Made by a program: the position numbers and the translations under genes | Source: an uncultured Candidatus Poseidoniales archaeon | Lineage (GTDB): Archaea; Thermoplasmatota; Poseidoniia; Poseidoniales; Thalassarchaeaceae | Direction of reading: 5' to 3' | Length of the DNA: 64,000 bases | NCBI GenBank assembly: GCA_902625325.1 | Contig: CACOAW010000002.1 | Location: 14,971 to 78,970, forward strand | Shown here: piece by piece, positions 1 to 52,000 of the stretch | How positions within the stretch are numbered: the stretch's first letter is position 1 | How the letters are laid out: the number at the start of each line of letters is the position of its first letter | The notes under the pieces: generated by a model | Databases searched by the model: none | What the model was told of the DNA's origin: nothing | What the model saw: the letters and a program-made list of their open reading frames with translations, nothing else

Positions 1-1325
1 AGAAGTTCGAGACCTTAGCGAGTCTACATGAGGTTGAAGCAACAGCAGTCGGAGAGTTCACCGATTCCGGGGCATTCGTGGTCCATCATGGACAGACTCC
101 CGTTGCACATCTGCCTATTCATTTCCTATTCGACGGATGCCCACAACTCAATCTAGAATCCGAGTGGAGTCCCCCGACTCACTTACCGGTAGAGACGCCC
201 GAACTGGATGAGAAAGGAATGGGGAAACTCCTCACCCGGCTCCTAGCCAGACCCAACGTAGCCAGCAAGGAATGGTGGGTCCGTTCCTACGACCACGAGG
301 TGATAGCCCAGAGCGTAATCAAGCCATTCTGTGGTACTAACCACGATGCTCCAGGGGACGCTGCTGTGATAGCGCCCATCCAAGGAGGGACCCAGGGGCT
401 AGTTATCTCGAACGGCATCGCTCCAAGATACTCTGACATAGATTCCTATGCAATGGCGGCGGCCTCCGTCGATGAGGCCCTAAGGAACGCCGTATGTGTA
501 GGGGTGGACCTAGATCTCATTGCAGGCCTCGACAACTTCTGCTGGCCGGACCCAATCGAGTCTTCCAAGACCCCGGATGGACGGTACAAACTGGCTCAAC
601 TGGTGAGAGCGAACAGAGCATTGGATGACGTCTGCAGGGCATACAGGCTACCATGTATCAGCGGAAAGGACTCCATGAAGAACGATGCTATGATGGGAGG
701 AGAGAAGATCAGCGTCCCACCAACCCTGCTATTCAGTCTGCTCGGAAACCACGAAGACGTCCGGAAAGCAGTCTCGTCGGACTTCAAGAAACCCGGAGAC
801 GCGATATTCCTAGTCGGAGAGACACATCAGGAACTCGGCGCTAGTGAATTAGCATTCATGCTGAGGGATGAGGGCTCAGGAGGGATAGGGGGAGCCGTAC
901 CGGAAATCGAACCAGAGAGGAACATGACAGTCTACAGGGCCCTTACTTCATCCATGAAGAGCGGACTAGTGTCAAGCGCCCATGACTGCAGCGATGGTGG
1001 CTTGGCCGTGGCTCTGGCGGAGTGCTGCTTCGGAGCTGACTCCGGAGCTTCGATCGACATATCCCCCCTCCAATCAGACTGCTCGAGTCTCGATGTTTGG
1101 GGGGCCCTTTTCGGAGAGAGCCTCGGCAGGATACTTGTAAGCGTCAGACCCACTGACAAGGAGGCCTTCGAGGAATCCATGGAGGGAGTATGCTGTCACT
1201 ACCTAGGACAGGTCTCCGAGGGAGACGCCATCTCAGTTTCCAGGGACGGAGAAAAAGTCCTCTTGGGCTCAATGTCGGAGATGAGGGACTCTTGGAAGGA
1301 CACACTACACGGAGGGGGGCTATGA
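1..1325 (+). CDS. purL: Phosphoribosylformylglycinamidine synthase PurL, 5'-partial
   Basis: Frame open from window start; motifs YDHEV, LDNFCWPDP, ISGKDSM, SAHDCSDGGLAVALAE, LFGES; followed by purQ. Confidence 0.95.
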   Translation, partial: KFETLASLHEVEATAVGEFTDSGAFVVHHGQTPVAHLPIHFLFDGCPQLNLESEWSPPTHLPVETPELDEKGMGKLLTRLLARPNVASKEWWVRSYDHEVIAQSVIKPFCGTNHDAPGDAAVIAPIQGGTQGLVISNGIAPRYSDIDSYAMAAASVDEALRNAVCVGVDLDLIAGLDNFCWPDPIESSKTPDGRYKLAQLVRANRALDDVCRAYRLPCISGKDSMKNDAMMGGEKISVPPTLLFSLLGNHEDVRKAVSSDFKKPGDAIFLVGETHQELGASELAFMLRDEGSGGIGGAVPEIEPERNMTVYRALTSSMKSGLVSSAHDCSDGGLAVALAECCFGADSGASIDISPLQSDCSSLDVWGALFGESLGRILVSVRPTDKEAFEESMEGVCCHYLGQVSEGDAISVSRDGEKVLLGSMSEMRDSWKDTLHGGGL

Positions 1326-22178: not shown

Positions 22179-22802
22179 GTGAATCACAACGAGGCTGCAG
22201 ACAGTATTCGGTCATGGTTGAACAGTGAGAGGCTTGAGGCAAGAGAGGTGAAGGACCCTCAGGCCATAATCCACCTTCATGTTAGGTACCCCCCAACAAA
22301 GCAAGGTCATCTGTTCAATATCGTAATTCCCAAGAAGAGAAATCTAGTATTGTTATACTCCATTACAAGAGTAGATGAGGGACAGCAGGAGTCAATGCGT
22401 GATATGGCTAAAGAAGACTCAGAGTCATGGGAGGAATGGCTACACGATACTAGAATCAGAATGACATCGTCTGACTTAGATTGGGTCCTCCATGTCGGGA
22501 GAAGCAAGCAGGGAGTCGCAGGCCCACTCCAGGCCTTCAATCTCTCTAGGCCGGTTTGGCTGGATGGTCTTACTCAGAATGAATTTATGCAGAGTATGAG
22601 AAGAGTGTGGCTAACCAAGTTATCACTGATACACCAAATAAAGTACGGCTTTGGAAATGGGAAGGGAAAACCAGGCCCAGTGGATGATTGGGAGGGGAAG
22701 AGAGGCAGAAAATCCTCTCAATCTCCTACTATACATTCAGAGATTGATACTGATGAGACAGGCGGTTTTGGGAAGGATTTTGACCCGCTTGAATGGGCCT
22801 AG
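22179..22802 (+). CDS. Hypothetical protein, DUF2299-like
   Basis: Archaeal DUF2299-like pattern (IRSWL..E, VWLDGLTQNEFM). Confidence 0.55.
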   Translation: MNHNEAADSIRSWLNSERLEAREVKDPQAIIHLHVRYPPTKQGHLFNIVIPKKRNLVLLYSITRVDEGQQESMRDMAKEDSESWEEWLHDTRIRMTSSDLDWVLHVGRSKQGVAGPLQAFNLSRPVWLDGLTQNEFMQSMRRVWLTKLSLIHQIKYGFGNGKGKPGPVDDWEGKRGRKSSQSPTIHSEIDTDETGGFGKDFDPLEWA

Positions 22803-22866
22803 TTCGTCATCTCCATCAAGTGACCATAATGGGCATAGGTTAAGTATTCGAGAAAGTCCAACGGGG

Positions 22867-25800
22867 ATGATGCACACCTCTCGACATCTTACTGACGATC
22901 GTGTATCTGGTAAGAAGAGCGGTTTAGCGATTGTCGTGCTAATGCTCTTGAGCCTTCTTGCCACATTCTCACCGCAGGCTAGTGCGAGCGAAATTGTTCT
23001 GACCGACCCCATAGAAGTCGTCCAGAGCGGTGTTCACAATGATAGAATGATGTCCATGGATGCAGACTCATCTGGAAACGTCCACGTAGTTTGGAGCCGC
23101 AACACGAACCACCTCTACTACAAGATGCTAGATCCAAGGGGAGAGACGCTGATTGCCGAGACTCAAATCTCTGATCCAGGAGCCCATCGAGCCTGGCATC
23201 CAGACATTAGAGTGGACAATGATGACATGGTCCACGTTGTCTGGACGGATAAGGCAAGTCAGTACAAAATAATGTACACTCTATTGGATCCTTCATTGGA
23301 CGATCAGAGCGGCGATGCGTCTCTGGACTCGGTACTTTCGGTGATTCCAGATGATTACGAGGTTGCAAACAATCCTCAGAACAGAGACTGGCCTGCGATA
23401 GACGTTGATTCTGAAAATAATCCACACATTGTATGGGAAGACTCGTTCGAACCACTGGAACTATACTATCAACAATCTCAGATTTACTACAAGATGATGT
23501 CAATTGATCACGTCGCTAGAATGGTAATAGTGGAGATTGACAGCACACTGTTGACCCCTATCCTTGGACAGAAGGGCCACCCAGATATCGCCGTTGACGT
23601 AAACGACTTCGTTCAGATAGTATGGGATGATACTAGGGGCGGCCAAGTAGAGATGGTTGTCCCTATCGATACGTCTGGATCTATGAATGCAGAATGGGCT
23701 GACATGTGTGCTGTATTCTATGGAGGGAACTTCGCGAGCGGCGGGTATTTCGTGGGCCTAAAGCCCATGCTCGTCAGCGCCAATATGAGTGTATACGAAA
23801 CCCTATATGCACTAAGTGGCAATTGGCCAGCAGCAGCGACCAGTGGAAACTGTGCCGACGCTTACCAGACCGGAGGATCCGGGAGTCAGGGCCCGAGAAA
23901 CACTCCTCTGGGTCCAGGAGACACCTCTGGAGGGATCAGAGAACTCACTGAGGTAGTTTACAACAACCAAGCGACCAACCTACCCGCTGATGGCGGTTAC
24001 TACAGCGAGTTCTGGGGACCTGCGGCAACCTGGGCATGCCTATCCTACAGAGATGTCCAAGGTAGACAGGGACTTTCTGCAAACCCTCCAACATCACTGG
24101 ACCACCGATGGAATGACAATGCCACGAGGGTTGTAATTCCAATCTCTGACGAAGGACCATACGGAGGGACACCGATGGACAATGACGATACGCAGAGCAT
24201 CAATCAGGCCCACGACGCTTGTGTTTTGGCCCAGACAAAGCCATATCCTCTCTGGGCAGGCTCCGACACTTCTGTCGGAAGTTACATGCTCGATCTTGCC
24301 CAGTGCCCCGTCGGGTCAGGGCTGAACACTAGGTCATGCAGCGGGGCTACGACTCGAACAACTTCCGCAGAGGGCCAAATGTATCAGTTCCCAACAACCG
24401 CAGGCTCCTCATCGGAGCTCGAGATAATGGTAGAGGCAATGGTCTACTTAGCCACGAATAACTCTCGAGAGATCTACATGACTGTTCTAGACCCCCACTC
24501 GCTTCTAGAGAATCCATGGCCTGGTTGGACTAGAGGCGATCCAGGTACAGAATCTAATCAGCAAGGAGGTTACTACACTGAGGATTTGGGCCCCTCAGAG
24601 GATGAACAGGGCTATGGACATCTGGTTGTTGTGAATGATACCCAAATTACAAACAACCCTGCTTACAGCCTACACCCCTCAATAGCAATAGACACATCAG
24701 GAAATACGCATCTCGCATGGCAAGATGGCCGACTGTATCCTGGCTGCTCAGGACCAACAGGTGGTATCGATATCGAAGGCGCCTACGAAATATACTACAC
24801 CAGACTCAGACTAAGAGGTGCTGCAGAATGGGACGGAGTTCCCGAGGGCCTACCAGCATACGGGATTAAGCAAATCGCGTCAAGCGCGATTTCGAACTCC
24901 GAGCAATGCGAGGGTGCTAGTGACGAATTCCCTTTTGCGCCAAGCTCGGTAGCCCCCTCTATCCTGACCGACTCCTTCGACAATGTCCACCTGGCTTGGG
25001 TAGACTACAGCAATACTGAATGGCAGGAGACAATTATGTATGCCAGACTAAACAATACCAACGAGGAGTACCCGCAGGGATTCCCATTGAATTCCGCAGC
25101 CTCTTCGGTACTAGACCCATGGGAGATACAAGAAGTCACCAACTGGTCTTCTGACAAGCTAGGCCCAGCACCCTGCCAGCCAGAGTGCAATACCGCCGAC
25201 GGACACCATCTATTCCCTGACTTCAATCTCGATCGCGGTATGCCTCCTGCATTCGCCAACGATCTCGGTAGTGGAGCACATATCGGATGGTCAGATAAGA
25301 AGTGCGACTGGGACGGACAGAATGCGAACAAGTGGACTCTTTGCTACGTTCACGTGCTGACTGGCCTTGTGGATCTCTCACTGGCCTGTGACGAGAAGAT
25401 ACAGGGAAATCCGAATATTGAGGGATACCCGTATGATTGCCCTTCAGACGCTGAGACATTCTACCATACCATCCAGCCGGGAGAACTTACAACGTTCAAC
25501 ATCACAATTGCCAATCCCACCCCAGGGCCCGCGGAATTAGTTCAGGATACGTTCACCATAACGATGGAGGGCGTTCCAAATAACTGGACTGCAACACTAT
25601 TCTACACGACTAACAATACCCCTATTTTTGACTCAACTAAGATTTTCCTCGAGGGCGGAGCCATAGATCCCCTCTACCTGAGAGTCAGAACACCCACAAT
25701 CTATCAGGCCAAGAGCGACGAACTTGCGCAGATAAGCATCATCGCAACGTCCCAAAAGGACCCCGCTATCCGCAACAAGTTAACCTTGCTAACTCTGATG

Positions 25801-28119
25801 GATGTTGTCCATGGAATAGAACTCGATACGAGCCATTTCCAAGTAGATGTTGAGCAGGGCAAATCGGCGGTCTTCTCAATTTCGATCAAGAACACTGGAA
25901 ACGTATTCGATACGTTCGCGTTTTACGACCCGGCTACACTGGATGGACAAAACGAGTGGTCACTTCCGTTTGGATGGGGAATAGACTTCCCACTGTCGCT
26001 ATCCTTGGATCCCGGTCAATCCGTAACTAGGAATCTGAAGGTCAGTGTCCCTGAATCGCAGGACCCCGGCACCTTCGCCATATACCTGAAGGGATGGTCA
26101 ACCGGAGAGCCTGTCTTATCTGTCGATAGGGGGACATTCGATGTACTAGAGTTATGGATAAACGTCTCCATTAGGACAACTGGGAACATCGTATTCGATA
26201 TCGGGGATACAAAACTATACGTTCTTCCCGGGGAATGTGCCAGATTCCCTGTTCAGGTAAACAAGTACTTTACTCCAGGGAGTCTAGTTTTCACGACTCC
26301 CGGCGCACCGATGGAGAGGCCAGAAGAGGCAGATATCAACTCATGGAGGTTCGATCACTGGACAGTAGACTTGGACTTCTCAGAATGGCCAGGCGGATCT
26401 TCATCTGCTGATCAGGACATCTACTGGGCAAATGTAGGTAACACATACACAGTCACAGCCGAGATGTGCTCTCCGTTCAATGCAACCGCTGGAATTGGGG
26501 AATCTGTCACAGTCCGCGCGCACCTGGATGGCTCCCCTAAAGTTCGTGACTCTGTGCTAATTCTGACTAATGTTGTTCAGAGATACGAACTAGAATCCTC
26601 AGTGCCTGAGACTATACTGGACCTATACCCCGGGCAGTCCTACCAAATGAACACCACAATCTCCAACCTAGGAAACGGCCAAGACAGGTTCGATGTCACA
26701 ATCGAGTCCATAATAGACGATAAAGGAGCGGCTCACGTTTGGGACATATACATCGCGAGGATATTATTCGAGGAATTGAACAGAGACGAATCACAGACCG
26801 TCCCAATTTACATCAACGTTCCAGTTCAGACCCTAGCCGGTGATTACACAATCACATTCAACGTCCTGAGTGAGGAGCCTTATGAGGGGACTAGGGTTCA
26901 GGATCAGGTGGTACTCAGGGCTACCATAATCGAGTTCCACGATATGCAAATTTCTCTGGATCCATTGGTGGAGAGCAAAATCAAGACCACGGCCCCAAGC
27001 AGAATCGTAAGATACACCCTCAATGTCACGAATTATGGAAACGTAGCTGATCAGCCTACGATCCACAACCACACATACGATGATGTGAATAAAATCTGGT
27101 CCGTGAGTCCGGGCCTGGGTTCTCTCAGCACATGGGAAATAGACTACGCTCTCTTGGAAGGGTTCGGTGGCGAGTTCCCGCTTGAGAAGCCATGCGTAGA
27201 ACTCAAAGTCGAAGAGGAGAACCAAATCAACCAGCAAATCTCCCAGGGAGAAGGGCCCGACTATTGCTATGTAACCGCAGGAAACACGATCACACTTCCC
27301 GTGATGGAGCCCTATACTACTCTGCAACTAGTTGTCATTGTCACCGTGGCTCCCGATGCATCGCTGGTCGACAGAAATCTCGGAATCAAGGTCCTGTCCA
27401 TGCACGGGTCTTCCGACGAGGGCGGTGATTTCGATGAGACTGAAGTTTGGACCGACTCGTGCACATTGGATAGCAACTCTGACGGAATCCCCGACAATCC
27501 CGCTCCTGATTGCGATACGAATGAGCAGGTCCTCGAGATGCGCCTTAGAGCCCCTGATCTAGTTCTAGAGAGCGTAGTGGCTCCAGACAGAGAAGCCGCG
27601 ATTGGAGAGATGCTCTCTGTTAACGTAATCATCACAAATAGAGGAAACGCACACGCTGCGGACGTCAACATCATCCTTTGCAAGGATCAGTCCGAATCTG
27701 ATATCAAGAGGAATGGATGCACGGAGGAGAATATCGTCTACAGACAGATTGTAAATGCTATTATGCCAATAGGGCAGTCCGAATCAGATCTATCTGACCC
27801 GATCACTCTGCTGTACATGGTCGAAGCCGGCAACCACGATGTCGTAGTCGTAGTAGATCCTGATAACAATATCGTGGAAACCGACGAGAGTAACAACATC
27901 GAGAAGATAGGGAATATGAAATCTCCTCTCGGAGCGATCGATGTAGGCAGAGAGATTGTAGTTAGATACTCTGTTCCGGTTATTATCATAGGCGCAACCT
28001 TCTCCCTATTCGGAGTCGCAGGCTTCGTAATCTGGGGAAGGAGGGTCGAGGCACTCGCTAGATTCTCAGAACTGAGCAGTCTATTGCCAGGTTCAGATGA
28101 TGATGACCTAGTGTTCTGA
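22867..28119 (+). CDS. Large cell-surface protein: beta-propeller with inserted vWA, Ig-like/COG1470 repeats, CARDB, C-terminal TM
   Basis: Signal peptide; seven PxIxxDxxxxxHxxWxD-type repeats; DTSGS MIDAS; I.N.GN..D repeats; VDPDNNIVETDESNN (CARDB); TM near 27973-28035. Confidence 0.85.
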   Translation: MMHTSRHLTDDRVSGKKSGLAIVVLMLLSLLATFSPQASASEIVLTDPIEVVQSGVHNDRMMSMDADSSGNVHVVWSRNTNHLYYKMLDPRGETLIAETQISDPGAHRAWHPDIRVDNDDMVHVVWTDKASQYKIMYTLLDPSLDDQSGDASLDSVLSVIPDDYEVANNPQNRDWPAIDVDSENNPHIVWEDSFEPLELYYQQSQIYYKMMSIDHVARMVIVEIDSTLLTPILGQKGHPDIAVDVNDFVQIVWDDTRGGQVEMVVPIDTSGSMNAEWADMCAVFYGGNFASGGYFVGLKPMLVSANMSVYETLYALSGNWPAAATSGNCADAYQTGGSGSQGPRNTPLGPGDTSGGIRELTEVVYNNQATNLPADGGYYSEFWGPAATWACLSYRDVQGRQGLSANPPTSLDHRWNDNATRVVIPISDEGPYGGTPMDNDDTQSINQAHDACVLAQTKPYPLWAGSDTSVGSYMLDLAQCPVGSGLNTRSCSGATTRTTSAEGQMYQFPTTAGSSSELEIMVEAMVYLATNNSREIYMTVLDPHSLLENPWPGWTRGDPGTESNQQGGYYTEDLGPSEDEQGYGHLVVVNDTQITNNPAYSLHPSIAIDTSGNTHLAWQDGRLYPGCSGPTGGIDIEGAYEIYYTRLRLRGAAEWDGVPEGLPAYGIKQIASSAISNSEQCEGASDEFPFAPSSVAPSILTDSFDNVHLAWVDYSNTEWQETIMYARLNNTNEEYPQGFPLNSAASSVLDPWEIQEVTNWSSDKLGPAPCQPECNTADGHHLFPDFNLDRGMPPAFANDLGSGAHIGWSDKKCDWDGQNANKWTLCYVHVLTGLVDLSLACDEKIQGNPNIEGYPYDCPSDAETFYHTIQPGELTTFNITIANPTPGPAELVQDTFTITMEGVPNNWTATLFYTTNNTPIFDSTKIFLEGGAIDPLYLRVRTPTIYQAKSDELAQISIIATSQKDPAIRNKLTLLTLMDVVHGIELDTSHFQVDVEQGKSAVFSISIKNTGNVFDTFAFYDPATLDGQNEWSLPFGWGIDFPLSLSLDPGQSVTRNLKVSVPESQDPGTFAIYLKGWSTGEPVLSVDRGTFDVLELWINVSIRTTGNIVFDIGDTKLYVLPGECARFPVQVNKYFTPGSLVFTTPGAPMERPEEADINSWRFDHWTVDLDFSEWPGGSSSADQDIYWANVGNTYTVTAEMCSPFNATAGIGESVTVRAHLDGSPKVRDSVLILTNVVQRYELESSVPETILDLYPGQSYQMNTTISNLGNGQDRFDVTIESIIDDKGAAHVWDIYIARILFEELNRDESQTVPIYINVPVQTLAGDYTITFNVLSEEPYEGTRVQDQVVLRATIIEFHDMQISLDPLVESKIKTTAPSRIVRYTLNVTNYGNVADQPTIHNHTYDDVNKIWSVSPGLGSLSTWEIDYALLEGFGGEFPLEKPCVELKVEEENQINQQISQGEGPDYCYVTAGNTITLPVMEPYTTLQLVVIVTVAPDASLVDRNLGIKVLSMHGSSDEGGDFDETEVWTDSCTLDSNSDGIPDNPAPDCDTNEQVLEMRLRAPDLVLESVVAPDREAAIGEMLSVNVIITNRGNAHAADVNIILCKDQSESDIKRNGCTEENIVYRQIVNAIMPIGQSESDLSDPITLLYMVEAGNHDVVVVVDPDNNIVETDESNNIEKIGNMKSPLGAIDVGREIVVRYSVPVIIIGATFSLFGVAGFVIWGRRVEALARFSELSSLLPGSDDDDLVF

Positions 28120-28125
28120 GGTCTA

Positions 28126-28857
28126 CTACTTCGCCATCCACCATGGAAGTGGCATTGACTCCCTGCCAGAGACAAAGGAACCAGAACTCGTCGCGAAATC
28201 CCTCATTAGTTTCTCTCTCAAAGCATCCATCATCTTCTCAGCATGCATTGATTGTATCCTCATACCTTGGGAGAAAGCATCCAAGTCCAACGGTCTCCTA
28301 GGGTTCCTCATCATGGCGTGTGCAAGCTGCCTCTCTTCGTAAGATTCGAAGCCCCTTTCCAGACTTGGAGAGACCTTGTGCATGACTTGCTGATGAAGCG
28401 CGATTATCGAATCCCTCTGCCTGTCAACACTCTCCAACGCCGCATCCAACTCTGACAAAATCCCCATCGCATCTACTATCGGCAGGCTCTTTCTGGAACT
28501 AATCCTGCCCAAAACACTCTCCAGGTTTTCAGGAAGACCTCCGGAAAAGCTCACCCCTCGAGGCATCTTCCTATGCTCGGCCCTGAAAAGGTCGGGCCCC
28601 AAATCCAGACGAATCGAGAACGACTGATTGACTCTGTACACTTTTTTGGGGGGGCCGCCCTTGTCCGACTTCTTCATTTCCGAATCTACGAATCCAGCTT
28701 CCTCCAGAACCTTGAGGTGTTTTACAACCGCCTGTTGGCTGACATCAAGCAACTCAGAGAGTTGCAATGGGTAGTGAGGCTCCTTTACCAGATGTCTGAG
28801 AATTGACCTCCTAGTAGGATTCTCTAGAATACTCAGAGACTCATCGAAGCCTACCAC
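28126..28857 (-). CDS. ArsR-family HTH transcriptional regulator with coiled-coil C-terminus
   Basis: LENPTRRSIL, VSQQAVVKHLKVLEEAGFV, GGPPKKVY. Confidence 0.88.
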   Translation of the reverse strand: MVGFDESLSILENPTRRSILRHLVKEPHYPLQLSELLDVSQQAVVKHLKVLEEAGFVDSEMKKSDKGGPPKKVYRVNQSFSIRLDLGPDLFRAEHRKMPRGVSFSGGLPENLESVLGRISSRKSLPIVDAMGILSELDAALESVDRQRDSIIALHQQVMHKVSPSLERGFESYEERQLAHAMMRNPRRPLDLDAFSQGMRIQSMHAEKMMDALREKLMRDFATSSGSFVSGRESMPLPWWMAK

Positions 28858-36111: not shown

Positions 36112-39100
36112 TCATGAGCATCCGGTTGTAGAACCACACTCATTGCATTTCAGACAGGTGCCGTTTCTGACCATCTGGCTACCCCCGCAGTCTTCACAGA
36201 TGTCACCAGTGAAACCTCTCTCCCTCGCAGCCTGCCTGGTCCTCGCATCCACATCTCCCACTGCTGCTTCTAGGGTCATCTGAACCTCTCGCCTCTCGCC
36301 CCGGCTCCGAGACAGTCCCTGTTCAGTCACCTCTGGTTTGCTGATGGAGAATGGGTTCAGGTCCTCCTCATTCAGAGGAACATGAGCTAGGTCGTCCCTG
36401 CCGGCATACTCGATTGCGAGCTCGCGGAAGACCCAGTCGATGATGCTGGATGACATCTTCACACGTCCACTGCCTCCCTCAATCATACCGCTTGGCTCAA
36501 ACTTGGTGAATGTGAATGACTTCACGAATGCATCAATGGGTACTCCGTGCTGTAAACCGATAGACACCGCGATAGCAAATTGGGATAGTAGGGCTCTCCA
36601 AGCAGCGCCTTCCTTGGAGGTAAGCAGGAAGATCTCGCCGAGCTTGCCGTCTTCGTATTCTCCTGTGATGAGACGTACGCTGTGACCGCCCACTCTGGCC
36701 TTGAAGTTCGCCCCCCTCTTTCTGTGGGGGAGAGGCCTCTTTGATGCGATGTAATTCTCAACAAGCGCCTTCGCAACAGGCATCGCCACCGGCTCTGGAA
36801 GTGGTAGCGCGCTCGCGGCCTCCTCCACCATCTTCTCGACAACAGTCTCCTCCTCATCCTCCTCTTCCAGGTCCATGGAGTCCACTAACTGACTCATCAA
36901 GGGCTGTGAAAGCTTGCTCCCATCTCTGTAAACGGCACAGGCTTTGTTCATTGTGGCGTAGCTAAGGTTGTATGCTTCTCTAACGTCCTCTATCGAGCAG
37001 TCGGATGGCATGTTAATCGTCTTTGAAATCGCTCCCGAAATGAAGGGCTGCGCGGCAGCCATCATGTTTACGTGACCCGAAGGAGCAATGGAACGGACTC
37101 CAGCTCCCGATGGCTGAGCACAGTCAAAAATCGGTAGATGCTCGTCTTTCAGACCTGGAGCTCCTTCAATGGTGTTCCGACCAATAATCTCCGTGTTTGC
37201 GACCTCAATTTCTTCGTTTGTCATGCCAATGTGGGAGAGAGTGTCGAACCATGGGTTGCTGCACTTTTCCTTGCCGTCCTCGTCCAAGTAAAAATCGTCC
37301 TCTGTCAATCCGAGATTCTTGACACAGAATTCCTTTCCGAGAATGTCGGGTGAGAATGCATTCCTAACATGGAATACTTTTGGCAGCTCAGATTCAATTT
37401 CAGACAATTTTTCGGAGGTCATTCCAGCGTTGTTTAGTAGCTCATGAGGTATTGATGGACTCAGTCTGCCGGTTCCCACGACATACTCCTCTATCCCTTT
37501 CGCTTCTGACTTTGAGTAACCAAGTCTGGACAAAGCGCTTGGCAGTCCTTGGTTGATGATTCTCAGAGATCCACCTCCTGCAAGTTGCTTGTACTGTACC
37601 ATGGAGAACTGCGGCTCGATTCCTGTGGTATCCGCGCCCATTACGAGACCGATTGTTCCCGTAGGAGCAATTACCGTCGTCTGGGCATTCCTGAAACCAT
37701 GTTCTTCACCCTCCATTACTGCCCGATCCCAACAGCTTCTAGCAGCTTCTAGCAGATCCTTGGGACACTTCTTGGAGTCTATTCCCATTGGTAACACTGT
37801 TATCCCTTCGTATTCTTCAGCAGGAGCGTTGTACGCAGCTCTTCGATGGTTCCTCATCACGCGCAGCATATCATCAGAATTACGTTCGTAATCCGGAAAG
37901 GGGCCGAGGTATGAGGCCATTTCTGCACTGGTGGCATATGATTCCCCGCACATTATGGCTGTTATAGCCCCACATATTGAGAAGGCCCTCTCGTCATCAT
38001 ACGGGATTCCCATGTGAGTTAGAAGAGACCCGATATTGCAGTAACCAAGTCCAAGAGTTCTGTAATCATAGGAGCCCTTTGCTATTGACTCAGAAGGGAA
38101 CTGTGCCATTAGGACACTGATTTCTAATGTAGCAGTCCATACTCTGACACTGTGTTTGAAGTCTTCAACCTGGAAGGTATGGCTATCTAGATCGTAATAA
38201 TGTAGCAGGTTAATACTCGCTAGATTACAAGCAGTGTCATCTAGGAACATGTATTCAGAACACGGGTTTGATCCATTGATTCTACCTGCTTGGGGGCAAG
38301 TGTGCCATTCGTTTATTGTGGTGTCGAACTGTACTCCAGGGTCCGCACAAGCCCATGCTGTGTAGGCAACTTTGTCCCACAGCGCCTTGGCATCCACAGT
38401 TCTACAGGGAACAGCATCCCTTCCTTCGTCCGCAGCAGCGTCCCTTTCCGTCCTAAAGTAGAGGTTCCACTCATCCCCAGATTGAACGGCATCCATGAAT
38501 GAATTAGGGACTCTGACAGAATTGTTGCTGTTTTGTCCGGATACCGTCGCGTAGGATTCGCCTTGCCAATCAGTGTCTAAGACTTCGAATTCCATACCTT
38601 TCCAACCTTGTTCGGCCAGATCGACAATCCTTTTGATGTGAGCTTGCGGAACACTGTCATGGATGGCCTTGACCATAGCTTTCCTGAGTCCAAGGTTCGT
38701 TTTCTGATTGAACCTACCCTCATCACTATCAAATGACCAAATAGACTCCATAATGGAGTCAGCGTGCTTCTGTAGGATTGTACTTCCGATTACTAGTGCT
38801 GAGACTTTATCCTCTTCGGAGGGCTTCCAGTCTATGTATTCCTCAATATCTGGGTGGTCCATGTCGAGAGTGACCATTTTTGCCGCTCTCCTGGTAGTTC
38901 CTCCGGATTTTATTGCTCCAGCAGCCCTATCACCAATCTTCAGGAAAGACAAGAGTCCACTGGATGTCCCTCCTCCTGAAAGCGGCTCCCCTTTCCCTCT
39001 TATGTTAGAAAAGTTGGATCCGGTGCCGGATCCATACTTGAATAGAAGCGCCTCTCTGTTCCAGAGGCCCATGATTGAGTCTGCACCCCCCACCAGTGAA

Positions 39101-39768
39101 TCAGATACTGACTGAATGAAACAAGCATGAGGCTGAGGGTGCTCATATGCATTGGTAGATTTTTCTAAGTCACCTGTATCTGGGTCTACGTAGCTATGGC
39201 CTTGAGCCGGGCCTTCGATTCCATATGCCCAATGCAACCCTGTGTTGAACCACTGGGGGCTGTTAGGTGCAGATCTCTGACTTGCAATCAGATAGCACAT
39301 CTCATCGAAGTACGCGCGGGCATCAGCCTCGCTTGCGAAGTATCCGTACTTCCAGCCCCAGTAGGTCCAGGTCCCTGCGAGCCGACGGAAGAGCTGTCTT
39401 CCGTCAATCTCACCACCCATTCTTTCAGCGGCATCCACAGTCTGAAGCCGCTCGTGATCTGGCTCACTTCGCTGTAGCCAGACTGGAACGTCGTCCTCGG
39501 GAACGTTTCGAAGATACTTCGGAACCCCCGCCTTGCGGAGATACTTCTGAGCACAGACCGTCCCTGGTACACCAGAGAACCCTGCAGGCAATTTCACGCC
39601 TTCTAATGAATCGGCCATAGACCCGTCTGGATTCCTAATCTGCACGTCCATCTCAATCCATTCGAACGACTCGAACGGATCCTGCCCTGCAGATGTGAAC
39701 CGTCGCTCGACGACCAAACCGCTCTCAGACTCTGCATTGCTCTCAGATGACTTAATTTTCGTCTGCAT
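36112..39768 (-). CDS. nrdJ: Adenosylcobalamin-dependent class II ribonucleotide reductase
   Basis: NSPQWFN, HACFI, SNPCSE, ACNLAS, APTGTI, GAISKTIN, C-terminal Zn ribbon; no intein seen. Confidence 0.95.
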   Translation of the reverse strand: MQTKIKSSESNAESESGLVVERRFTSAGQDPFESFEWIEMDVQIRNPDGSMADSLEGVKLPAGFSGVPGTVCAQKYLRKAGVPKYLRNVPEDDVPVWLQRSEPDHERLQTVDAAERMGGEIDGRQLFRRLAGTWTYWGWKYGYFASEADARAYFDEMCYLIASQRSAPNSPQWFNTGLHWAYGIEGPAQGHSYVDPDTGDLEKSTNAYEHPQPHACFIQSVSDSLVGGADSIMGLWNREALLFKYGSGTGSNFSNIRGKGEPLSGGGTSSGLLSFLKIGDRAAGAIKSGGTTRRAAKMVTLDMDHPDIEEYIDWKPSEEDKVSALVIGSTILQKHADSIMESIWSFDSDEGRFNQKTNLGLRKAMVKAIHDSVPQAHIKRIVDLAEQGWKGMEFEVLDTDWQGESYATVSGQNSNNSVRVPNSFMDAVQSGDEWNLYFRTERDAAADEGRDAVPCRTVDAKALWDKVAYTAWACADPGVQFDTTINEWHTCPQAGRINGSNPCSEYMFLDDTACNLASINLLHYYDLDSHTFQVEDFKHSVRVWTATLEISVLMAQFPSESIAKGSYDYRTLGLGYCNIGSLLTHMGIPYDDERAFSICGAITAIMCGESYATSAEMASYLGPFPDYERNSDDMLRVMRNHRRAAYNAPAEEYEGITVLPMGIDSKKCPKDLLEAARSCWDRAVMEGEEHGFRNAQTTVIAPTGTIGLVMGADTTGIEPQFSMVQYKQLAGGGSLRIINQGLPSALSRLGYSKSEAKGIEEYVVGTGRLSPSIPHELLNNAGMTSEKLSEIESELPKVFHVRNAFSPDILGKEFCVKNLGLTEDDFYLDEDGKEKCSNPWFDTLSHIGMTNEEIEVANTEIIGRNTIEGAPGLKDEHLPIFDCAQPSGAGVRSIAPSGHVNMMAAAQPFISGAISKTINMPSDCSIEDVREAYNLSYATMNKACAVYRDGSKLSQPLMSQLVDSMDLEEEDEEETVVEKMVEEAASALPLPEPVAMPVAKALVENYIASKRPLPHRKRGANFKARVGGHSVRLITGEYEDGKLGEIFLLTSKEGAAWRALLSQFAIAVSIGLQHGVPIDAFVKSFTFTKFEPSGMIEGGSGRVKMSSSIIDWVFRELAIEYAGRDDLAHVPLNEEDLNPFSISKPEVTEQGLSRSRGERREVQMTLEAAVGDVDARTRQAARERGFTGDICEDCGGSQMVRNGTCLKCNECGSTTGCS

Positions 39769-45971: not shown

Positions 45972-46086
45972 AAATCCCAGATGATACATCGGGGCTGCTG
46001 TGATACCCAAACCACCATACCGTGCCATCCATTGATAAGCACACAGAATCAGGCCATTACCTGCCCGAGGGTAAGCAGTGATTTGT

Positions 46087-49000
46087 ATGAACGTCAAACT
46101 AGAGAGAAAGACACAGAAGAAAATAATCCCAGCATTTTCAATGATAGCGATAATGCTACTCAGTCCTCAGATATCACTGCTACTGAATACTGACGATTCT
46201 CCAGAGAAAGGCAGCCGCGTCGAACCTCCCAAAAGAACAGCATATCAACAATTGGAACAACTTGGTGGATCAGTCCAGGGTGGGAATCAAAATTCTCCAT
46301 CCATGATGAGCCAATTCCAGACCGCAGCGTATCAAGACCCATTCTACAACGATCCCGCTGCACTCTACGGCAAGGTATCAGATCCATCCGCCCTGGCACT
46401 CGACCCGATGTACGGATTCTTTCTCGAAGAGACGAACACAGATGATCACGATAACGATGGTATTGACGATTTGAATGATCTAGATGATGACAATGATGGA
46501 ATCAACGATCTTATCGAGCGATTCGATGGTTGCTTTGGAACAGATCCTCTTGACCACGATAATGATGGCGTTAGGGACGAGTTCGACTGGGATGACGACA
46601 ATGATGGTATACTGGAGGGCCCAATCGACTACGATCAGGGAAACGACCCGTGGAATGTGACTTCAGACAGGTATGTAGAGCCCTTGACCAAACACCCTTG
46701 GACAGGGGATGAGGTTGGCTTCAATTACTTAGTAGACCAGAACCCAATGGATCACGATAATGACGGAATCACCGATGAGGACGTAGATGGATCGGGTCGC
46801 GGATCATACGATGAGGATGACGATAACGACGGCAGAATCGATCAGTTCGTTTGGCCCTGTGATTTCGATTCAGACGGAATACAGGATTACTTCGACGATG
46901 ACGATGACAACGATGGCGTATCAGACATCTCAGACATACACCCATGGGACCCCCTGCAGAATTCGTCTATCGAAACCGCACCCGATATACTGTGGGACTC
47001 TTGGGTCAGGTGGGATCCTGAGGATTACGGAGAGTATGTCGACGGACTGGACTACGTCGCCCTTCACGCCCTGGAGCACCCCAGAGAACAGGCTTTCTCG
47101 GAGATAGTGGACGGCGACCTCGATGGAGATGGAATTCCAAACTTCCTTGATCCCGACAACGACAACGATGGGGCCCCCGATTCCTCAGACACCGATGACG
47201 ACAATGATGGTCTGGCGGACATGTACGATGTAGACGACGACAATGACGGTATACCCGACTCATGCAGGCAGTTGGATACGAATGGAGATGGCCAAGGAGA
47301 CTATCCTTCACAGGCATTCAACGGCGCTGTAGTGGCCATCCAAGTACCCGGAACAGACTGTGAAATAGACTATGACGGGGATTTGGATGATGATAGATTC
47401 AGAGCCATCGATGCAGATTACGACATGGTCTGGGACTGGATTGATCCCGATATGGGGGGTACAACAAATCCAGACAACCTGCAGGGGGGGTCTCAACCCT
47501 GGGACTTGGATGATGACGGAATCCCCAATGAGGAGGACCCATACCCGATGAACTCAACAGCCGAGGTAGCAACATGGGACTGTGCCAGCGTTGCTAACCC
47601 GAATCCTCAGGACCCTAGCGATAATTGCGTACTTTGGCGGACGTCCTACACCGGATTCAACGACTGGGATGGCGATGGCCTGAACAACTGGGTCGACATG
47701 GATGACGACAACGACGGAATCCTGGATTGGCTGGACATAGACCCGGACTGCGACCTAGATAACGACGCAGATCTGCATGAGCTAAACGGCTCGATGTTCA
47801 GGGACGACGGAGCGAACGACATAGATACCGACGTCGATGGAGACGGTCTCCAGAACGACGAGGACTGGGACGACGACAACGACGGCATCAATGATTTCTT
47901 CGATCCTGATGACGGGAACTGCGGTGTAGTGGACATAGACAACACGGACAACTTCTACGGCAATAGCTGGCCTCAGGGAGACGGAGATGCCATCGATGGA
48001 TCGGAGGACGGAGATGCATATGTTGCAGTCCCAAACTACTACTGGAACCTAACTTGGGGATTCAACCCCTTCAATACAAACAACAGCTTCATGCTCGACT
48101 ACAACGGATACGATCCAAACAACTTCGACGACCCAAGTGGCATCATTCCTGAGATGTACTGGACTCTGATGATGAAGTGGAGCCCCTACAACGGTGACAA
48201 CTTCTTCGATATCGACAGCGACGGGGACTCCCTGGTAAACGGAATAGACGTGGATCAGGACGGAGATGGGATGCCCGATTGGTGGGATCAAGACGAGGGC
48301 AACGACGGCGTTCTGGATGTCGATGACGTCAAGATGGGAGGTACCTTGGATGGCAACTCATGCGGCACGGTCATCCTATCCGCAACAACCGAGAGATTCT
48401 GCGGCCACATCTACGCTTTCCAATACAAGGCGCCTCTGCTTACTCCGACTCAATCAGGTGGCCAATCCTTCACTGTTCCATACAGCAGCAGGCCCGACTC
48501 TGAATGGGATGATGGTGCATATGATGGGACAAACCACCCCACTGGAATGGGCAGTTGTGACAGCAACTGCTTCTGGTTCACATTCGATCCGACTAGCAAC
48601 CCAACCCCTTCAGTTGCGTATACGTATAACGACATCAAGAATAATAGAGATTTATGGATAGCTTACCTCGGAGTCACCGTCTTCGGATTCTTCCAGTGGA
48701 CTTCGGACGCTAATAACAACTTCTTCCCCGATGAGATTGCTGACGATCTCAACGATGACGTAGATCCGGACGTGGACTGCGGGCAGCCTATGCCGGAGGT
48801 ATCGTGGACCCCAAGTTGCATGTACAACAATACGAACGACTTGGACGATGACTGGGACATAGTCTACGATCACTTCGATGTGGACGATGACAATGACGGA
48901 ATCTGGGATTATTTCGAGATCGACTCAAACGATGATCTAGATGATGACTCAGGGATCGAGGAGCCATACTACTTCACCGGAAGCAATTGCGAGGACAATG

Positions 49001-52000
49001 ACGACGACGGTCTGGATACAGACCCCGACGATGATGGAATATACCAGGCAGTATGGGACAAAGGAGTACTAGGCCAGGCCCTACTATTCCCAGAGTACTA
49101 TGATGTGGATAACGATAACGACGGAGTTCCGGACGGGGAAGACCCAGACGACGATAATAACGGCCTGCTAGACGAGGCTCAGGAGGCATTCGAAGGATGC
49201 TTCACAGGGGAGGAACAGAGCCCATGGGACCACGACAACGATGGGATAGTTAACTGGGCAGATGACGACTGGGACGGCGACGGAATTTCAAATTCCCTAG
49301 AGCTACAAAACCTCAATGATACCAACGGGACAGCAGATCCTATTGACGATACCTGCTGTCTCAACTTCCCCATAGCCCCATGGGACCACGACAACGATGG
49401 GATAAGGGACGATATAGACGAGGACGATGATTACGACGGTATGAAGGACGAGGATGAAGTGATGCTATGGCCTTCGCGATACGGTACCGAATCAACGAAT
49501 CCATGGGACCACGACGACTTTGGAGGAGGGGTCGGACTGGCCAACCCCAACAACAACTCCACGGGTCCAGATTACTTCGATGTAGACGACGACAACGATG
49601 GAAGGGCGGACTTGGACTGGAACAACCCCTCTTCGGGGGATTGGGCCACACCATCAAACAAGATTGAGGAATCTTCAGGATGGAGCTCGGATTGGGATTC
49701 TGACAATGATGGAATTCTAGACAACGACGATAAGATACCGACTAGAATAACTCTGAACGCCCCATCCGTATTGTGGCTAGACGAAAACCGGCCAGTAATA
49801 TTCAATGGCTCCGTATTCTGGCTGGACGATACAGGTTTCGTCCCAGCACCAGACCTCCCCGTCCAGGTCCACATTAGGTACTCTACGAACGGCACATCCG
49901 TCATAGAGACTATCGACGTCCTGACTGACGACAACGGGGAGTATATCGTCGGCCAGTTCTTGTTCCCGGAAGACATCGATGTAGGGCCCAACTCAACCTA
50001 TGAGGTCTACTCAGAGGTCACCGAGATGTTCGTTCACGACTACAGCTCGACGCTCTCAGACACTGACGGAGACGGCATCGGAGACTCGGGGATGCCTGTA
50101 GAGGTTAGGGCGAACACCACGATTGGATTCGTGTCCGGGGAGAGGTTCAGATCAGACGAGCAACCCCTCAAGCTAGACTTCAAGGTCCACTACTCGGCAG
50201 ACTACAACAGAGGGATTTTCGATAACAGACTACCCTATGCGCCAGTCTCCTTCACGATTAGCGACCCAGGCCCCCAGTTTGGGAACATCACCCATCCGAC
50301 TGTCTACGATGGATACGGGAACGGATACAGGGCTGACGCAGGAGGCTGGGTTTCACTAGCTTACAACCAATCACTGGATGTATGGGAACAGGTCCAGTGG
50401 AACTCACTGCTGGATAATGGCCCCGGCGTCCCGACAGGCGGATATGAGGAGATAGTGTGGAACCCGTGCGGACCGCTCAATCCAGTAGGATCCCATTCTG
50501 TCATAGCGCCCTATGAGTACAAGAATACCTCGCTCCCTGTTGGTGACTACACCTTCATCGGATTCTCACGTCCTGATCTGGGAGGATGCACTGACGACTC
50601 CTACGAATGGCCCTGGTCCCACCTCGAGGGTTCGGAGACGGACGCCTTCTACATACGTTCCATGCACAGGATGTTCATAGAGGCCGAGATGTCAGCGGCC
50701 TCCTTCAGGCCAGTCTACTTCTGGGACTCTACCCAGTTCACAGGATCGTCCTTCGGCGCATGGAGGGCTCTCTTCCATGCCCCATCGCTCGCAAATGCGA
50801 ACATGACGTATCAGGAGGCCAGTCTTGGCAAGCCATACCCGCTTCTATGGGACGGGACTCCCTCGGGTCTCTCTGGAATAGCAGCCGGCGCCCTCGCCCC
50901 GTTCCTGTCCTCTGATGGGATAAACTGGACCATAACGATGCAGAATGCGGCTGACTTCGACTCGCCTCCATGCGGACCGGTCGACCCACTCGATCCCAGC
51001 AGCCAGATCCGCTGCGAGATTGTACCGGAGATATTCGCAGGTGAGTCCGTCAGGGTAAGGGGGCACGTCTGGAACAAGACAATGGTGCCCGTCACTGACT
51101 TCGACGGCGATGGAGCGAAAGACCCCATAGCCGTACAGATAGACTTGGACTACAATGGCATCTTTGCTGGATCCATAGAGACTCGAGTGAACCAGCGACT
51201 GGACATCGATACAGAGGGCCTCGCAACATTCGACCACGACATAATCTGGGACCCATACTGGCCAGCATCGACATACGGCTTCAGAGCCGACTTCGGCCAG
51301 GCCGACTACTTCTTCACCGGAGAGCAAGCAGGAGTCCTAGCAGCTACCGGCGCGTACGGAAATGTATCGGTCATAGGTTCCACTGACTTCCTAATGACAT
51401 CTCTGACGCGCCTCTACAGGGGCCAGAACGCGACTGTCGAGGCCCGTCTGATTGACAATGCCGGGCTTCCTGTACGTGAAGCCCCAGTGAACTGGTCATG
51501 GTCCGAAGACCAATCGAGCGGTGTGGTTTTCACCGACAACAACGGGATTTTCAGGGTCAATCTGACAGACATTGACACCCTGGGGAACTTCTCGCTCAGT
51601 TTCACCTACCTCGGAGATAAGTTCAGGCTGGGAAGTACGGACTCAGTAGACATGTGGGTCGTTTCACGGACCTTCATCAACGTTCAGAGCACCAGTCCCA
51701 ACATCAGATCAAACGGTGATCTGTGGGAATTCACCGCTGTTGTCACCGATGATAATAGAACTCCATTCGACAAGGACGGAGGCCAGGTTCTGAATAGCTG
51801 CGAGGGAGAGATGCAGAATCCTGAGGGATACGACCTGGGAGGCAACGTAACGGTAATCTTCGAGGGAATAGACTTCGAGGACAGGACCCACCGACAGATA
51901 GTTTCGGTCGAGTGCCCGGCATCTGGCTCCATCGGCTACGGACAATACCTTGACCCGCAGCTGCTGAAGGACGATCCATTCTCCTTCCTTCCCGATGGTT

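Follow-up and report, generated by a model that had tools for sequence, protein, structure and literature searches.

Domain organization of the locus

We analyzed a 64,000-nucleotide stretch of DNA from an uncultured Candidatus Poseidoniales archaeon of the Thalassarchaeaceae (assembly GCA_902625325.1, contig CACOAW010000002.1, positions 14,971 to 78,970 of the forward strand), which we call the window throughout. At positions 22867-28119 (+) it carries a gene for a protein of 1750 amino acids (aa) with, in this order, a signal peptide, seven repeats with an insert of ~280 aa in the fourth, a β-sandwich stalk, a CARDB domain, one transmembrane helix and a tail of 26 aa. The open reading frame (ORF) spans 22651-28119 (+), the ATG at 22867 gives the 1750-aa protein, and the window's own genome holds a single copy. 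An earlier note on this DNA had proposed a seven-bladed propeller with an inserted von Willebrand factor A (vWA) domain bearing a MIDAS (metal ion-dependent adhesion site), carried on immunoglobulin (Ig)-like repeats and reminiscent of integrin α subunits; every motif that it quoted was found at its position in a sequence check. We conclude that the gene encodes an order-specific, near-universal type I surface protein of the Poseidoniales, the Marine Group II (MGII) archaea. Its features are the following.

22867..28119 (+): whole gene, 1750 aa plus stop (ORF list and translation)
22867..22989 (+): signal peptide (aa 1-41), with a hydrophobic core at aa 17-38 and then ASA before and SE after the cleavage site (Kyte-Doolittle scan; cleavage site read from the sequence)
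22990..23631 (+): predicted N-terminal part of the propeller (aa 42-255), comprising the closing strand, blades 1-3 and the first two strands of blade 4 (DSSP of the model; VIA alignments over model residues 1..793)
23632..24468 (+): predicted vWA insert (aa 256-534), which separates strand 2 from strand 3 in blade 4 (model, fold scans, hhalign)
23668..23682 (+): MIDAS motif D268-T-S270-G-S272, directly after strand β1 (position; 34 of 34 orthologues; extended hhalign alignment on the canonical DxSGS)
24007..24009 (+): Glu381, located where two helices meet and a candidate for the fourth MIDAS ligand (conservation and DSSP placement; putative role)
24145..24153 (+): S427-D428-E429 after strand β4, with Asp428 as candidate MIDAS Asp (hhalign core alignment; 34 of 34 orthologues)
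24469..25371 (+): predicted C-terminal part of the propeller (aa 535-835), comprising strands 3-4 of blade 4 and blades 5-7 (DSSP, VIA alignments)
25402..27366 (+): stalk of about five β-sandwich-like segments (aa 846-1500) (weak Pfam matches to NPCBM_assoc, DUF7507 and Ig_VWA7; hhalign for segments 2, 4 and 5)
27553..27900 (+): CARDB domain (aa 1563-1678) (Pfam, E 1.4e-14; family profile against 2l0d_A)
27973..28038 (+): transmembrane helix (aa 1703-1724) (Kyte-Doolittle scan)
28039..28116 (+): cytoplasmic tail (aa 1725-1750), RR-x-EA-..-E(K/Q)SS(L/M)-acidic end (alignment of 34 orthologues)

The seven repeats start at aa 64, 112, 176, 239, 604, 697 and 794. Their signature, D-x(4-7)-[HQ]-[IVL]-[VGA]-W, occurs at 7 distinct sites in the protein (9 overlapping matches), compared with a mean of 0.033 and a maximum of 3 over 2000 shuffles. 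Only after repeat 4 is the (I/L)YY-type strand absent from the next 33 residues; the displaced strand, EIYMTVLDP, follows at aa 535-543 (nt 24469-24495), and the stretch in between contains DTSGS (aa 268-272, nt 23668-23682), SEFW (aa 380-383) and VVIPISDEG (aa 422-430, Asp428 at nt 24148). The Kyte-Doolittle scan found two hydrophobic stretches, at aa 17-38 and aa 1703-1724. The ectodomain is acidic, with an isoelectric point (pI) of 4.22. We take as support for a surface location that all 22 Cys of the protein lie within it, and that five of the six N-glycosylation sequons of the head are retained in 34 of 34 orthologues. Sequons as such are not enriched in the protein (14 observed, 13.8 +/- 3.3 in shuffles).

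The head is predicted to form one closed propeller

The head (aa 42-850) was modeled with AlphaFold2 on the basis of 51 aligned sequences that are 28-92% identical to the query, which gave a mean predicted local distance difference test (pLDDT) score of 85.6 and a predicted template modeling (pTM) score of 0.88. DSSP assigned four strands to each repeat of the model, that is 28 propeller strands, and by our own reading of the blades strands 1-2 of blade 4 (model 195-202 and 208-214) precede the insert, strands 3-4 (493-500 and 546-552) follow it, and the one remaining strand, at the N terminus (model 2-4), completes blade 7. In structural alignments with VIA-align, the head matched CylK (7ron) best, with Z 32.2 and a root-mean-square deviation (rmsd) of 2.4 Å over 350 residues (model 6..793); other matches were WDR5 (4cy1_B; Z 27.7, 287/301 residues, model 1..793), the Photorhabdus PLL lectins (Z 25-27), BT3686 and BACCELL_00856 (Z 22.8-23.6, BT3686 at 23.6) and the integrin αL headpiece (Z 23.3 over 347 residues). 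Because whole seven-bladed propellers align across both sides of the insert, its flanks are not separate domains; the flanking repeats are predicted to fold into one propeller, and the model and the VIA alignments thus bear out the single closed seven-bladed propeller that the earlier note had claimed.

The relatives of the repeats, 1352 representatives at E<=1e-3 among 1.84 billion sequences, are a large set of extracellular propeller proteins. Pfam BNR_4 (PF15892) lay above its cut-off of 27.3 bits in three of the five repeat-only relatives scanned and below it in two, and SBBP appears too; relatives P0166, P0173 and P0201 scored 84.1, 50.3 and 37.3 bits, and P0154, P0181 and P0148 stayed below the cut-off. 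The 1750-aa protein itself has no match to a BNR family in Pfam at E<=1. BNR_4 members such as FoRham1 and BT3686 are seven-bladed propellers (PMC8377490, in part). We conclude from the model and from these relatives that the head is one closed seven-bladed β-propeller of a BNR_4-like kind. Its conserved residues mostly belong to the motif repeated in each blade and mark no single pocket, and its look-alikes by protein language model were only unnamed Thermoplasmatota clusters.

The insert is predicted to be a divergent vWA domain

Modeled alone, the insert (aa 254-536) reached a pLDDT of 90.3 and a pTM of 0.90 and displayed an alternating β/α pattern. In a fold scan of this model against 48,161 PDB representatives, which is independent of Foldseek, the best 50 matches were all of vWA type, led by the von Willebrand factor (vWF) A1 domain (Z 12.1, rmsd 3.5, 178/202 residues) and including collagen VI, BatB, CMG2, the integrin αM I domain, pilus adhesins, Rpn10, TFIIH p44 and Sec23/24. 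Foldseek returned the β-I domains of integrins β3 and β8, CMG2 and the collagen VII vWA domain as best matches (E 3.3e-4 to 1.1e-3, TM-score ~0.4). The moderate Z and TM-scores are explained by ~100 residues of the insert that form extra loops.

We also compared an alignment of the insert (55 rows) by hhalign with 29 canonical vWA domains of archaea whose genomes belong to the same phylum, which yielded a probability of 82%. The core alignment places VVIPISDEGP on the canonical ..LTDG.P, and an extended collinear alignment places PIDTSGSM on.LD.SGSM. Among look-alikes found by protein language model, the top named clusters were vWA at 0.89, which we regard as a lead only. In the model the DxSxS motif lies in the β1-α1 loop, and the reading of the insert as a vWA fold is upheld by this predicted structure. 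We therefore describe the insert as a very divergent vWA domain; in the model it occupies the loop that joins strand 2 of blade 4 to strand 3.

The two sequences that join the vWA domain to the propeller (WDDTRGG.VE and TNNSREI) are invariant in the 34 orthologues, as are six Cys of the insert. The high pTM of the head model (0.88) suggests that the predicted vWA domain may be held in a fixed orientation. Pfam VWA (PF00092) has no match anywhere in the window's own genome, and the family is present in 2 of 41 genomes of the order compared with 65 of 121 in the phylum. A search by tblastn detected no relatives in viral contigs, and BFVD gave generic vWA proteins only.

A candidate metal site is under strict selection

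In the model, DTSGS directly follows strand β1 (aa 260-267) and precedes the first helix, and SD follows strand β4; these are the classical MIDAS positions. DTSGS, E381 and S427-D428-E429 are invariant in the 34 orthologues (54-92% identity). DxSxS is intact in 44 of 50 homologues, all 44 of which keep E381 and D428, and of the six with a broken motif (P0125, P0131, P0137, P0139, P0140 and P0148) five lack the Asp and four the Glu. Second copies in other genomes keep all motifs in nine of twelve cases; in the remaining three (G015, G037 and G041) some or all MIDAS residues have been exchanged, although each of these genomes also has an intact orthologue. The second paralogues L053-L056 (in G037, G041, G005 and G015) are longer ORFs of 1732-1832 aa. 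From this conservation across sequences we conclude that the candidate metal site is under strict selection.

No conserved Thr was found for the MIDAS position in the helix-helix loop. E381 sits at a helix-helix junction ahead of strand β4, and because the αM I domain places its MIDAS Thr (Thr209) at the corresponding position (PMC6275225, in part), we propose a candidate D-S-S-E-D site with E381 in place of the Thr. Such a D-S-S-E-D site would resemble the β-I type.

Stalk, CARDB domain and membrane anchor

Pfam sees the C-terminal part of the protein only. There, CARDB (PF07705) at aa 1563-1678 scores 54.6 bits against a cut-off of 22.7 (E 1.4e-14), as the earlier note had proposed, and the family profile matches the solved CARDB-like chain 2l0d_A at E 0.0023. 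NPCBM_assoc lies above its cut-off in the stalk with 29.9 bits; DUF7507 and Ig_VWA7 are sub-threshold. The region from the head to CARDB divides into about five segments of 115-160 aa, among which segments 2, 4 and 5 are mutually related by hhalign (probabilities of 96%, 94% and 80%), while hhalign linked neither segments 1 and 3 nor CARDB to any other segment. Of the "about five Ig-like repeats" in the earlier note, the relationship of three segments can thus be maintained, and the stretches at aa ~846-962 and 1083-1216 are without fold evidence. We take the stalk to consist of about six putative β-sandwich domains, the last of which is CARDB. A complex prediction with three copies of stalk segments 1-2 (aa 845-1082) returned a score of 0.00, which is no answer and says nothing either way about self-association.

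The transmembrane helix is followed by a short tail as had been suggested, of 26 rather than ~27 aa, which reads RRVEALARFSELSSLLPGSDDDDLVF. Its pattern, RR-x-EA...E(K/Q)SS(L/M) and then an acidic end, is common to both families of the order, and it does not contain a GFFKR motif. Mean pairwise identity among the 34 orthologues is 0.62-0.63 for the propeller, 0.66 for the vWA domain, 0.49-0.52 for the distal stalk and CARDB, and 0.47 for the tail.

The linker in front of CARDB (window 27403-27540, aa 1513-1558) reads ..DSCTLDSNSDGIPDNPAPDCDTNE.. and is bracketed by conserved Cys. Its Asp, Asn and Cys columns are conserved in orthologues, and it has no match to Pfam TSP_3; in the whole gene 22867-28119, thrombospondin type 3 (PF02412) had no match at E<=1. 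The linker holds what we take to be a calcium-binding motif of the Dx[DN]xDG-like type.

The gene belongs to the core genome of the Poseidoniales

The earlier note had called for a survey of MGII orthologues. With aa 42-850 as query and a threshold of E<=1e-10, matches were found in 149 of 151 Poseidoniales genomes, including 57 of 58 high-quality genomes and all 22 genera, so that hardly any genome of the order lacks the gene; the completeness of the two in which no match was found is 94% and 84%. The orthologues, 1516-1752 aa long, cover 80-100% of the query in alignments. The same query had no match in any of five sister-family genomes that are at least 91% complete. In the other large family, f3, most genomes contain a single match (51-56% identity), and in the window's family, f1, several genera have 2-5 matches. 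With the insert alone as query, matches occurred in 20 of 21 f1 genomes besides the window's own, in 42 of 42 f3 genomes and in none of eight genomes of the sister family f4 of the same class; elsewhere in the phylum there were two weak matches (E 3.6e-8 and 6.7e-13). The total is 65 of the 301 genomes of the phylum. The source names of the relatives are Poseidoniales, Thalassarchaeaceae, Poseidonia and Thermoplasmatota, and their annotation is "CARDB domain-containing" or "hypothetical".

The genomic context is of a housekeeping kind. Genes for RFC, a FAD-binding protein, HIT, an acyltransferase and DUF2299 lie on the same strand, and genes for an ArsR-type helix-turn-helix (HTH) protein and topoisomerase VI subunits A and B converge on them from the opposite strand. 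The order from the FAD protein to topoisomerase VI is identical in three of three genomes examined, covering both families, and over its full length the protein is 47% identical in G003 and G056 and 63% identical in G027, which is comparable to or above that of most neighbors. We conclude that the gene is a vertically inherited core gene of the order Poseidoniales.

Immediately upstream, the DUF2299 gene (window 22179-22802, +) ends 64 bp away on the same strand; downstream, the convergent ArsR-type HTH gene (window 28126-28857, -) has its stop codon just 6 bases from that of the gene. The same two neighbors are found on either side in all three other genomes examined, across the two families.

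Six of the 20 sequencing runs holding the gene are on record as RNA, and contigs of four cover it. In an analysis of codon usage, the first axis corresponds to GC content at third codon positions (GC3), and the third axis has L22, EF-1α, L2, S3 and RpoA' among its 10 most extreme ORFs; the gene lies at the 2.5th percentile of this third axis. In codon scores against 10 ribosomal proteins chosen by location it ranks 303 and 248 of 1015, values that are confounded by GC3 and that do not place EF-1α or RpoA' high. Of the eight ORFs whose GC3-linked codon-usage score is lowest, seven lie close together outside the window, at ~45-67 kb of contig C3, in what may be a foreign or specialized island.

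A receptor role is proposed and weighed against other functions

Based on these findings, we propose that the protein is a constitutive, metal-dependent ligand-binding surface receptor, a reading that we give about an even chance of being correct. In this model, a Sec-type signal peptide would export the protein and the C-terminal helix would anchor it in the membrane. The vWA domain would carry a MIDAS formed by D268, S270, S272, probably E381, and D428, which in sea water would hold Mg2+ or another divalent cation. The ion would complete its coordination with a carboxylate of a ligand outside the cell, supplied by an acidic residue of a protein or by an acidic polysaccharide, so that binding would take place well away from the membrane; on the inner side, a cytoplasmic partner may be contacted by the conserved 26-aa tail. 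What the analysis establishes is the gene, its order of domains, the predicted folds, the conserved residues, the distribution and the synteny; that a metal and a ligand are bound, what the ligand is and whether a signal follows is inferred. A MIDAS ion held by DxSxS, Thr or Glu, and Asp completes its shell with a ligand carboxylate (PMC6275225, in part), and because MIDAS ions take up such carboxylates, cation-dependent binding of an acidic ligand is the likeliest mechanism. The earlier note had framed the protein as a means of particle attachment, which we do not favor: since the gene is near-universal, usually single-match, housekeeping-syntenic and evenly conserved, a constitutive envelope component fits better than an accessory adhesin.

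Several observations weigh against a receptor with a MIDAS. Pfam has no VWA-type family in the insert at E<=1, and neither a phmmer search of the PDB with the insert (E<=10) nor the family profiles against the PDB found a vWA domain, the only chains matched being CARDB-like and C-terminal; homology to vWA is thus drawn from the predicted fold, the motifs and the hhalign probability of 82%. The usual position of the MIDAS Thr appears to hold Glu. The joint loss of MIDAS residues may go back to no more than one or two events in evolution, because the six homologues with a broken motif may belong to one or two clades, which leaves few independent losses. The most conserved part of the protein is not the head but stalk segment 2 (aa 962-1082, window 25750-26112), at an identity of 0.74 compared with 0.62-0.66. 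A near-universal, slowly evolving and evenly conserved gene is also unusual among adhesins and just as compatible with a structural role. As to expression, the contigs from RNA libraries cover neighboring genes equally and cannot rank genes, and carry-over of DNA is possible.

The main rival is a structural, S-layer-like role, in which the protein would be the main envelope protein of MGII and form a canopy: the stalk would keep the propeller-vWA heads raised over the membrane, the heads or the highly conserved stalk segment 2 would make up a lattice, and an acidic residue of the adjacent subunit, not a foreign ligand, would be bridged by the MIDAS ion. The near-universal presence of the gene in the order, with one match in most genomes and a conserved housekeeping context, speaks for this role, as do the conservation of the whole ectodomain with its maximum in stalk segment 2, the C-terminal membrane anchor, the acidic ectodomain (pI 4.22) and the conserved sequons of the head. 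Archaeal S-layer proteins of solved structure often consist of Ig-like domains in series and are anchored at the C terminus. In addition, the MGII genomics papers PMC6461757, PMC6741140, PMC6864105 and PMC6336850, in their available parts, mention neither an S-layer nor this protein. A lattice of this kind is harder to reconcile with sequons that are not enriched over shuffles (14 vs 13.8 +/- 3.3) and with the several genera that have 2-5 matches, some with a degraded MIDAS; moreover, we know of no S-layer protein that bears a vWA domain. We consider the S-layer-like role rather unlikely on balance, yet the one to be taken most seriously besides the receptor.

A more far-reaching version of the receptor model would have the protein act as a convergent integrin-like receptor with outside-in adhesion signaling, passing from the MIDAS through the invariant junctions to the propeller, the stalk and the conserved tail. 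If this were true, contact with particles, prey polymers or cells would be coupled to an intracellular response, and adhesion signaling would have been invented independently in an archaeon. We regard this extension as improbable.

Slightly less probable still is a surface-tethered propeller enzyme that acts on acidic polysaccharides, like PL42/GH145, PL24 or PL25, with the vWA domain as an accessory substrate holder over the active cleft. FoRham1 is a BNR_4 seven-bladed propeller whose anterior face bears the active cleft, lined on its sides by loops from blades 1, 3, 4 and 6 (PMC8377490, in part). BNR_4 lies above its cut-off in three of the five repeat-only relatives scanned, BT3686 and BACCELL_00856 match the head at Z 22.8-23.6, and Foldseek adds 5mvh (TMt 0.65) and FoRham1 itself (7esk, TMt 0.58). 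The 1750-aa protein, however, does not reach BNR_4 at E<=1; the non-enzymatic WDR5 and PLL lectins outscore the glycoside hydrolases, with CylK highest; and the conserved propeller residues are mostly those of the per-blade repeat motif rather than of a single pocket.

The likeness to α-I integrins is convergent

When the whole head was compared by Foldseek with 350,542 PDB chains, the five best matches were α-I integrin headpieces (four of αL β2 and one of αE β7, E 4.3e-8 to 5.7e-7). Identity between head and integrin is 7-10% and the global TM-score 0.22; because the latter is low, the domains are arranged differently from those of the integrin. Like the α-I integrin α subunits (αL, αM, αX and αE), the archaeal protein combines a seven-bladed propeller carrying a vWA or I domain in a loop with a leg of β-sandwich domains, one transmembrane helix, a short cytoplasmic tail and a MIDAS of the DxSxS type. 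The two differ in the blades, which are BNR_4-like in the archaeal protein and FG-GAP in integrins; at E<=1, Pfam has no match to FG-GAP, VCBS or integrin families in the 1750-aa protein. They also differ in the site of insertion, which is predicted to lie inside blade 4 (strands 2-3), whereas the integrin I domain is inserted between blades W2 and W3 (PMC6275225, in part). By topology, the loop that joins strands 2 and 3 of a blade would share a face with the inter-blade loops, the face on which the I domain sits in integrins. Further differences are the invariant vWA/propeller junctions, the Glu that probably occupies the site where the I domain has Thr209, the lack of GFFKR in the tail and the archaeal host. 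A β subunit is not known for the archaeal protein, no partner search having been made, and Pfam VWA occurs in two of 41 genomes of the order.

The likeness to α-I integrins is convergent, as the earlier note had thought probable: there is no FG-GAP or integrin match at E<=1, the relatives are BNR_4 and SBBP proteins, and the insertion is inside blade 4. True homology to integrin α subunits, by common descent or gene transfer, would account for the five best Foldseek matches of the head and for the alignment with integrin αL at Z 23.3 over 347 residues, but we consider it highly improbable in view of the missing FG-GAP, VCBS and integrin families (E<=1), the BNR_4/SBBP relatives of the repeats, the insertion inside blade 4 instead of between W2 and W3, the identity of 7-10% with a global TM-score of 0.22, the higher VIA-align scores of other seven-bladed propellers and the lack of a GFFKR motif. 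The homologue reading was accordingly rejected, the defining features of integrins (FG-GAP repeats, insertion site and GFFKR) not being those of this protein.

Other known systems share parts of the architecture. PilY1-type adhesins of type IV pili are likewise prokaryotic surface proteins that combine vWA and β-propeller for adhesion; in PilY1 the two are in tandem, pilus-borne and bacterial, whereas in the archaeal protein they are nested and transmembrane-anchored. The BNR_4/PL42 (former GH145) propellers BT3686 and FoRham1 are seven-bladed and of the same broad repeat family, but they are enzymes without an inserted domain, stalk or anchor, and the archaeal protein stays below the Pfam threshold. 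The vWA pilus tip adhesins of Gram-positive bacteria and Bacteroidota (RrgA, SpaC, PitA, Mfa5 and PilB) have in common with it a vWA domain with insertions, MIDAS-dependent adhesion and an Ig-like stalk, and the insert matches them structurally at Z 9.5-11.0; unlike it, they have no propeller and are attached covalently or to a pilus rather than by a transmembrane helix. Archaeal S-layer glycoproteins are large and acidic, with Ig-like domains and a C-terminal anchor, and ubiquitous within a lineage, although to our knowledge none has a propeller-vWA head.

Other features of the window and genome

A giant ORF of 2639 aa at window 46078-53997 (+) has a sub-threshold Big_1 match and weak matches to thrombospondin type 3, and probably encodes another large surface protein. 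Across the window's genome, thrombospondin type 3 repeats (PF02412) gave 54 matches at E<=1, four of them above the cut-off and most in a few large ORFs of 678-2220 aa; the thrombospondin-rich ORFs are on contigs C20, C8, C25, C19 and C15, outside the window. The same search had no match in any of 14 control genomes. Earlier MGII surveys probably referred to these ORFs when they listed "thrombospondin" genes for adhesion.

At window 36112-39768 (-) lies a class II ribonucleotide reductase of 1218 aa, in which the barrel domain matches in two stretches and is followed by a TSCPD domain; its length suggests an insertion such as an intein.

Implications for Marine Group II archaea

Full-text literature searches on MGII adhesion, S-layer and CARDB, on archaeal integrin-like proteins and on nested vWA/propeller proteins retrieved, among the papers listed, no description of this protein or of a prokaryotic propeller with a nested vWA domain, in line with the earlier note, which knew of no description of the architecture in archaea; the combination of "Marine Group II" and CARDB had no match. 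Adhesion of MGII has been ascribed to archaella, thrombospondin genes or repeat proteins, and flotillin (PMC6461757, PMC6741140, PMC6864105 and PMC6336850, each in part). In the available parts of these papers, integrin is absent from PMC6461757, PMC6741140 and PMC6336850, von Willebrand from PMC6461757 and PMC6741140, and propeller from PMC6461757. The domains are known ones, combined in an architecture not reported for prokaryotes in the literature searched, and they make up an unannotated family that is core to the order.

MGII are described as the most abundant planktonic archaea of the surface ocean (PMC6461757, in part); they are uncultured, and their cell surface is essentially unknown. 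Since the head (aa 42-835) and the vWA domain (aa 254-536) are modeled confidently, expression, metal-dependent binding assays and structure work can be planned directly. Near-universal in the order, restricted to it and built on the α-I integrin plan, the protein offers a concrete target for studying how MGII cells meet particles, polymers, viruses and each other, what their envelope is composed of, and how often evolution reaches a MIDAS domain nested in a stalked propeller.

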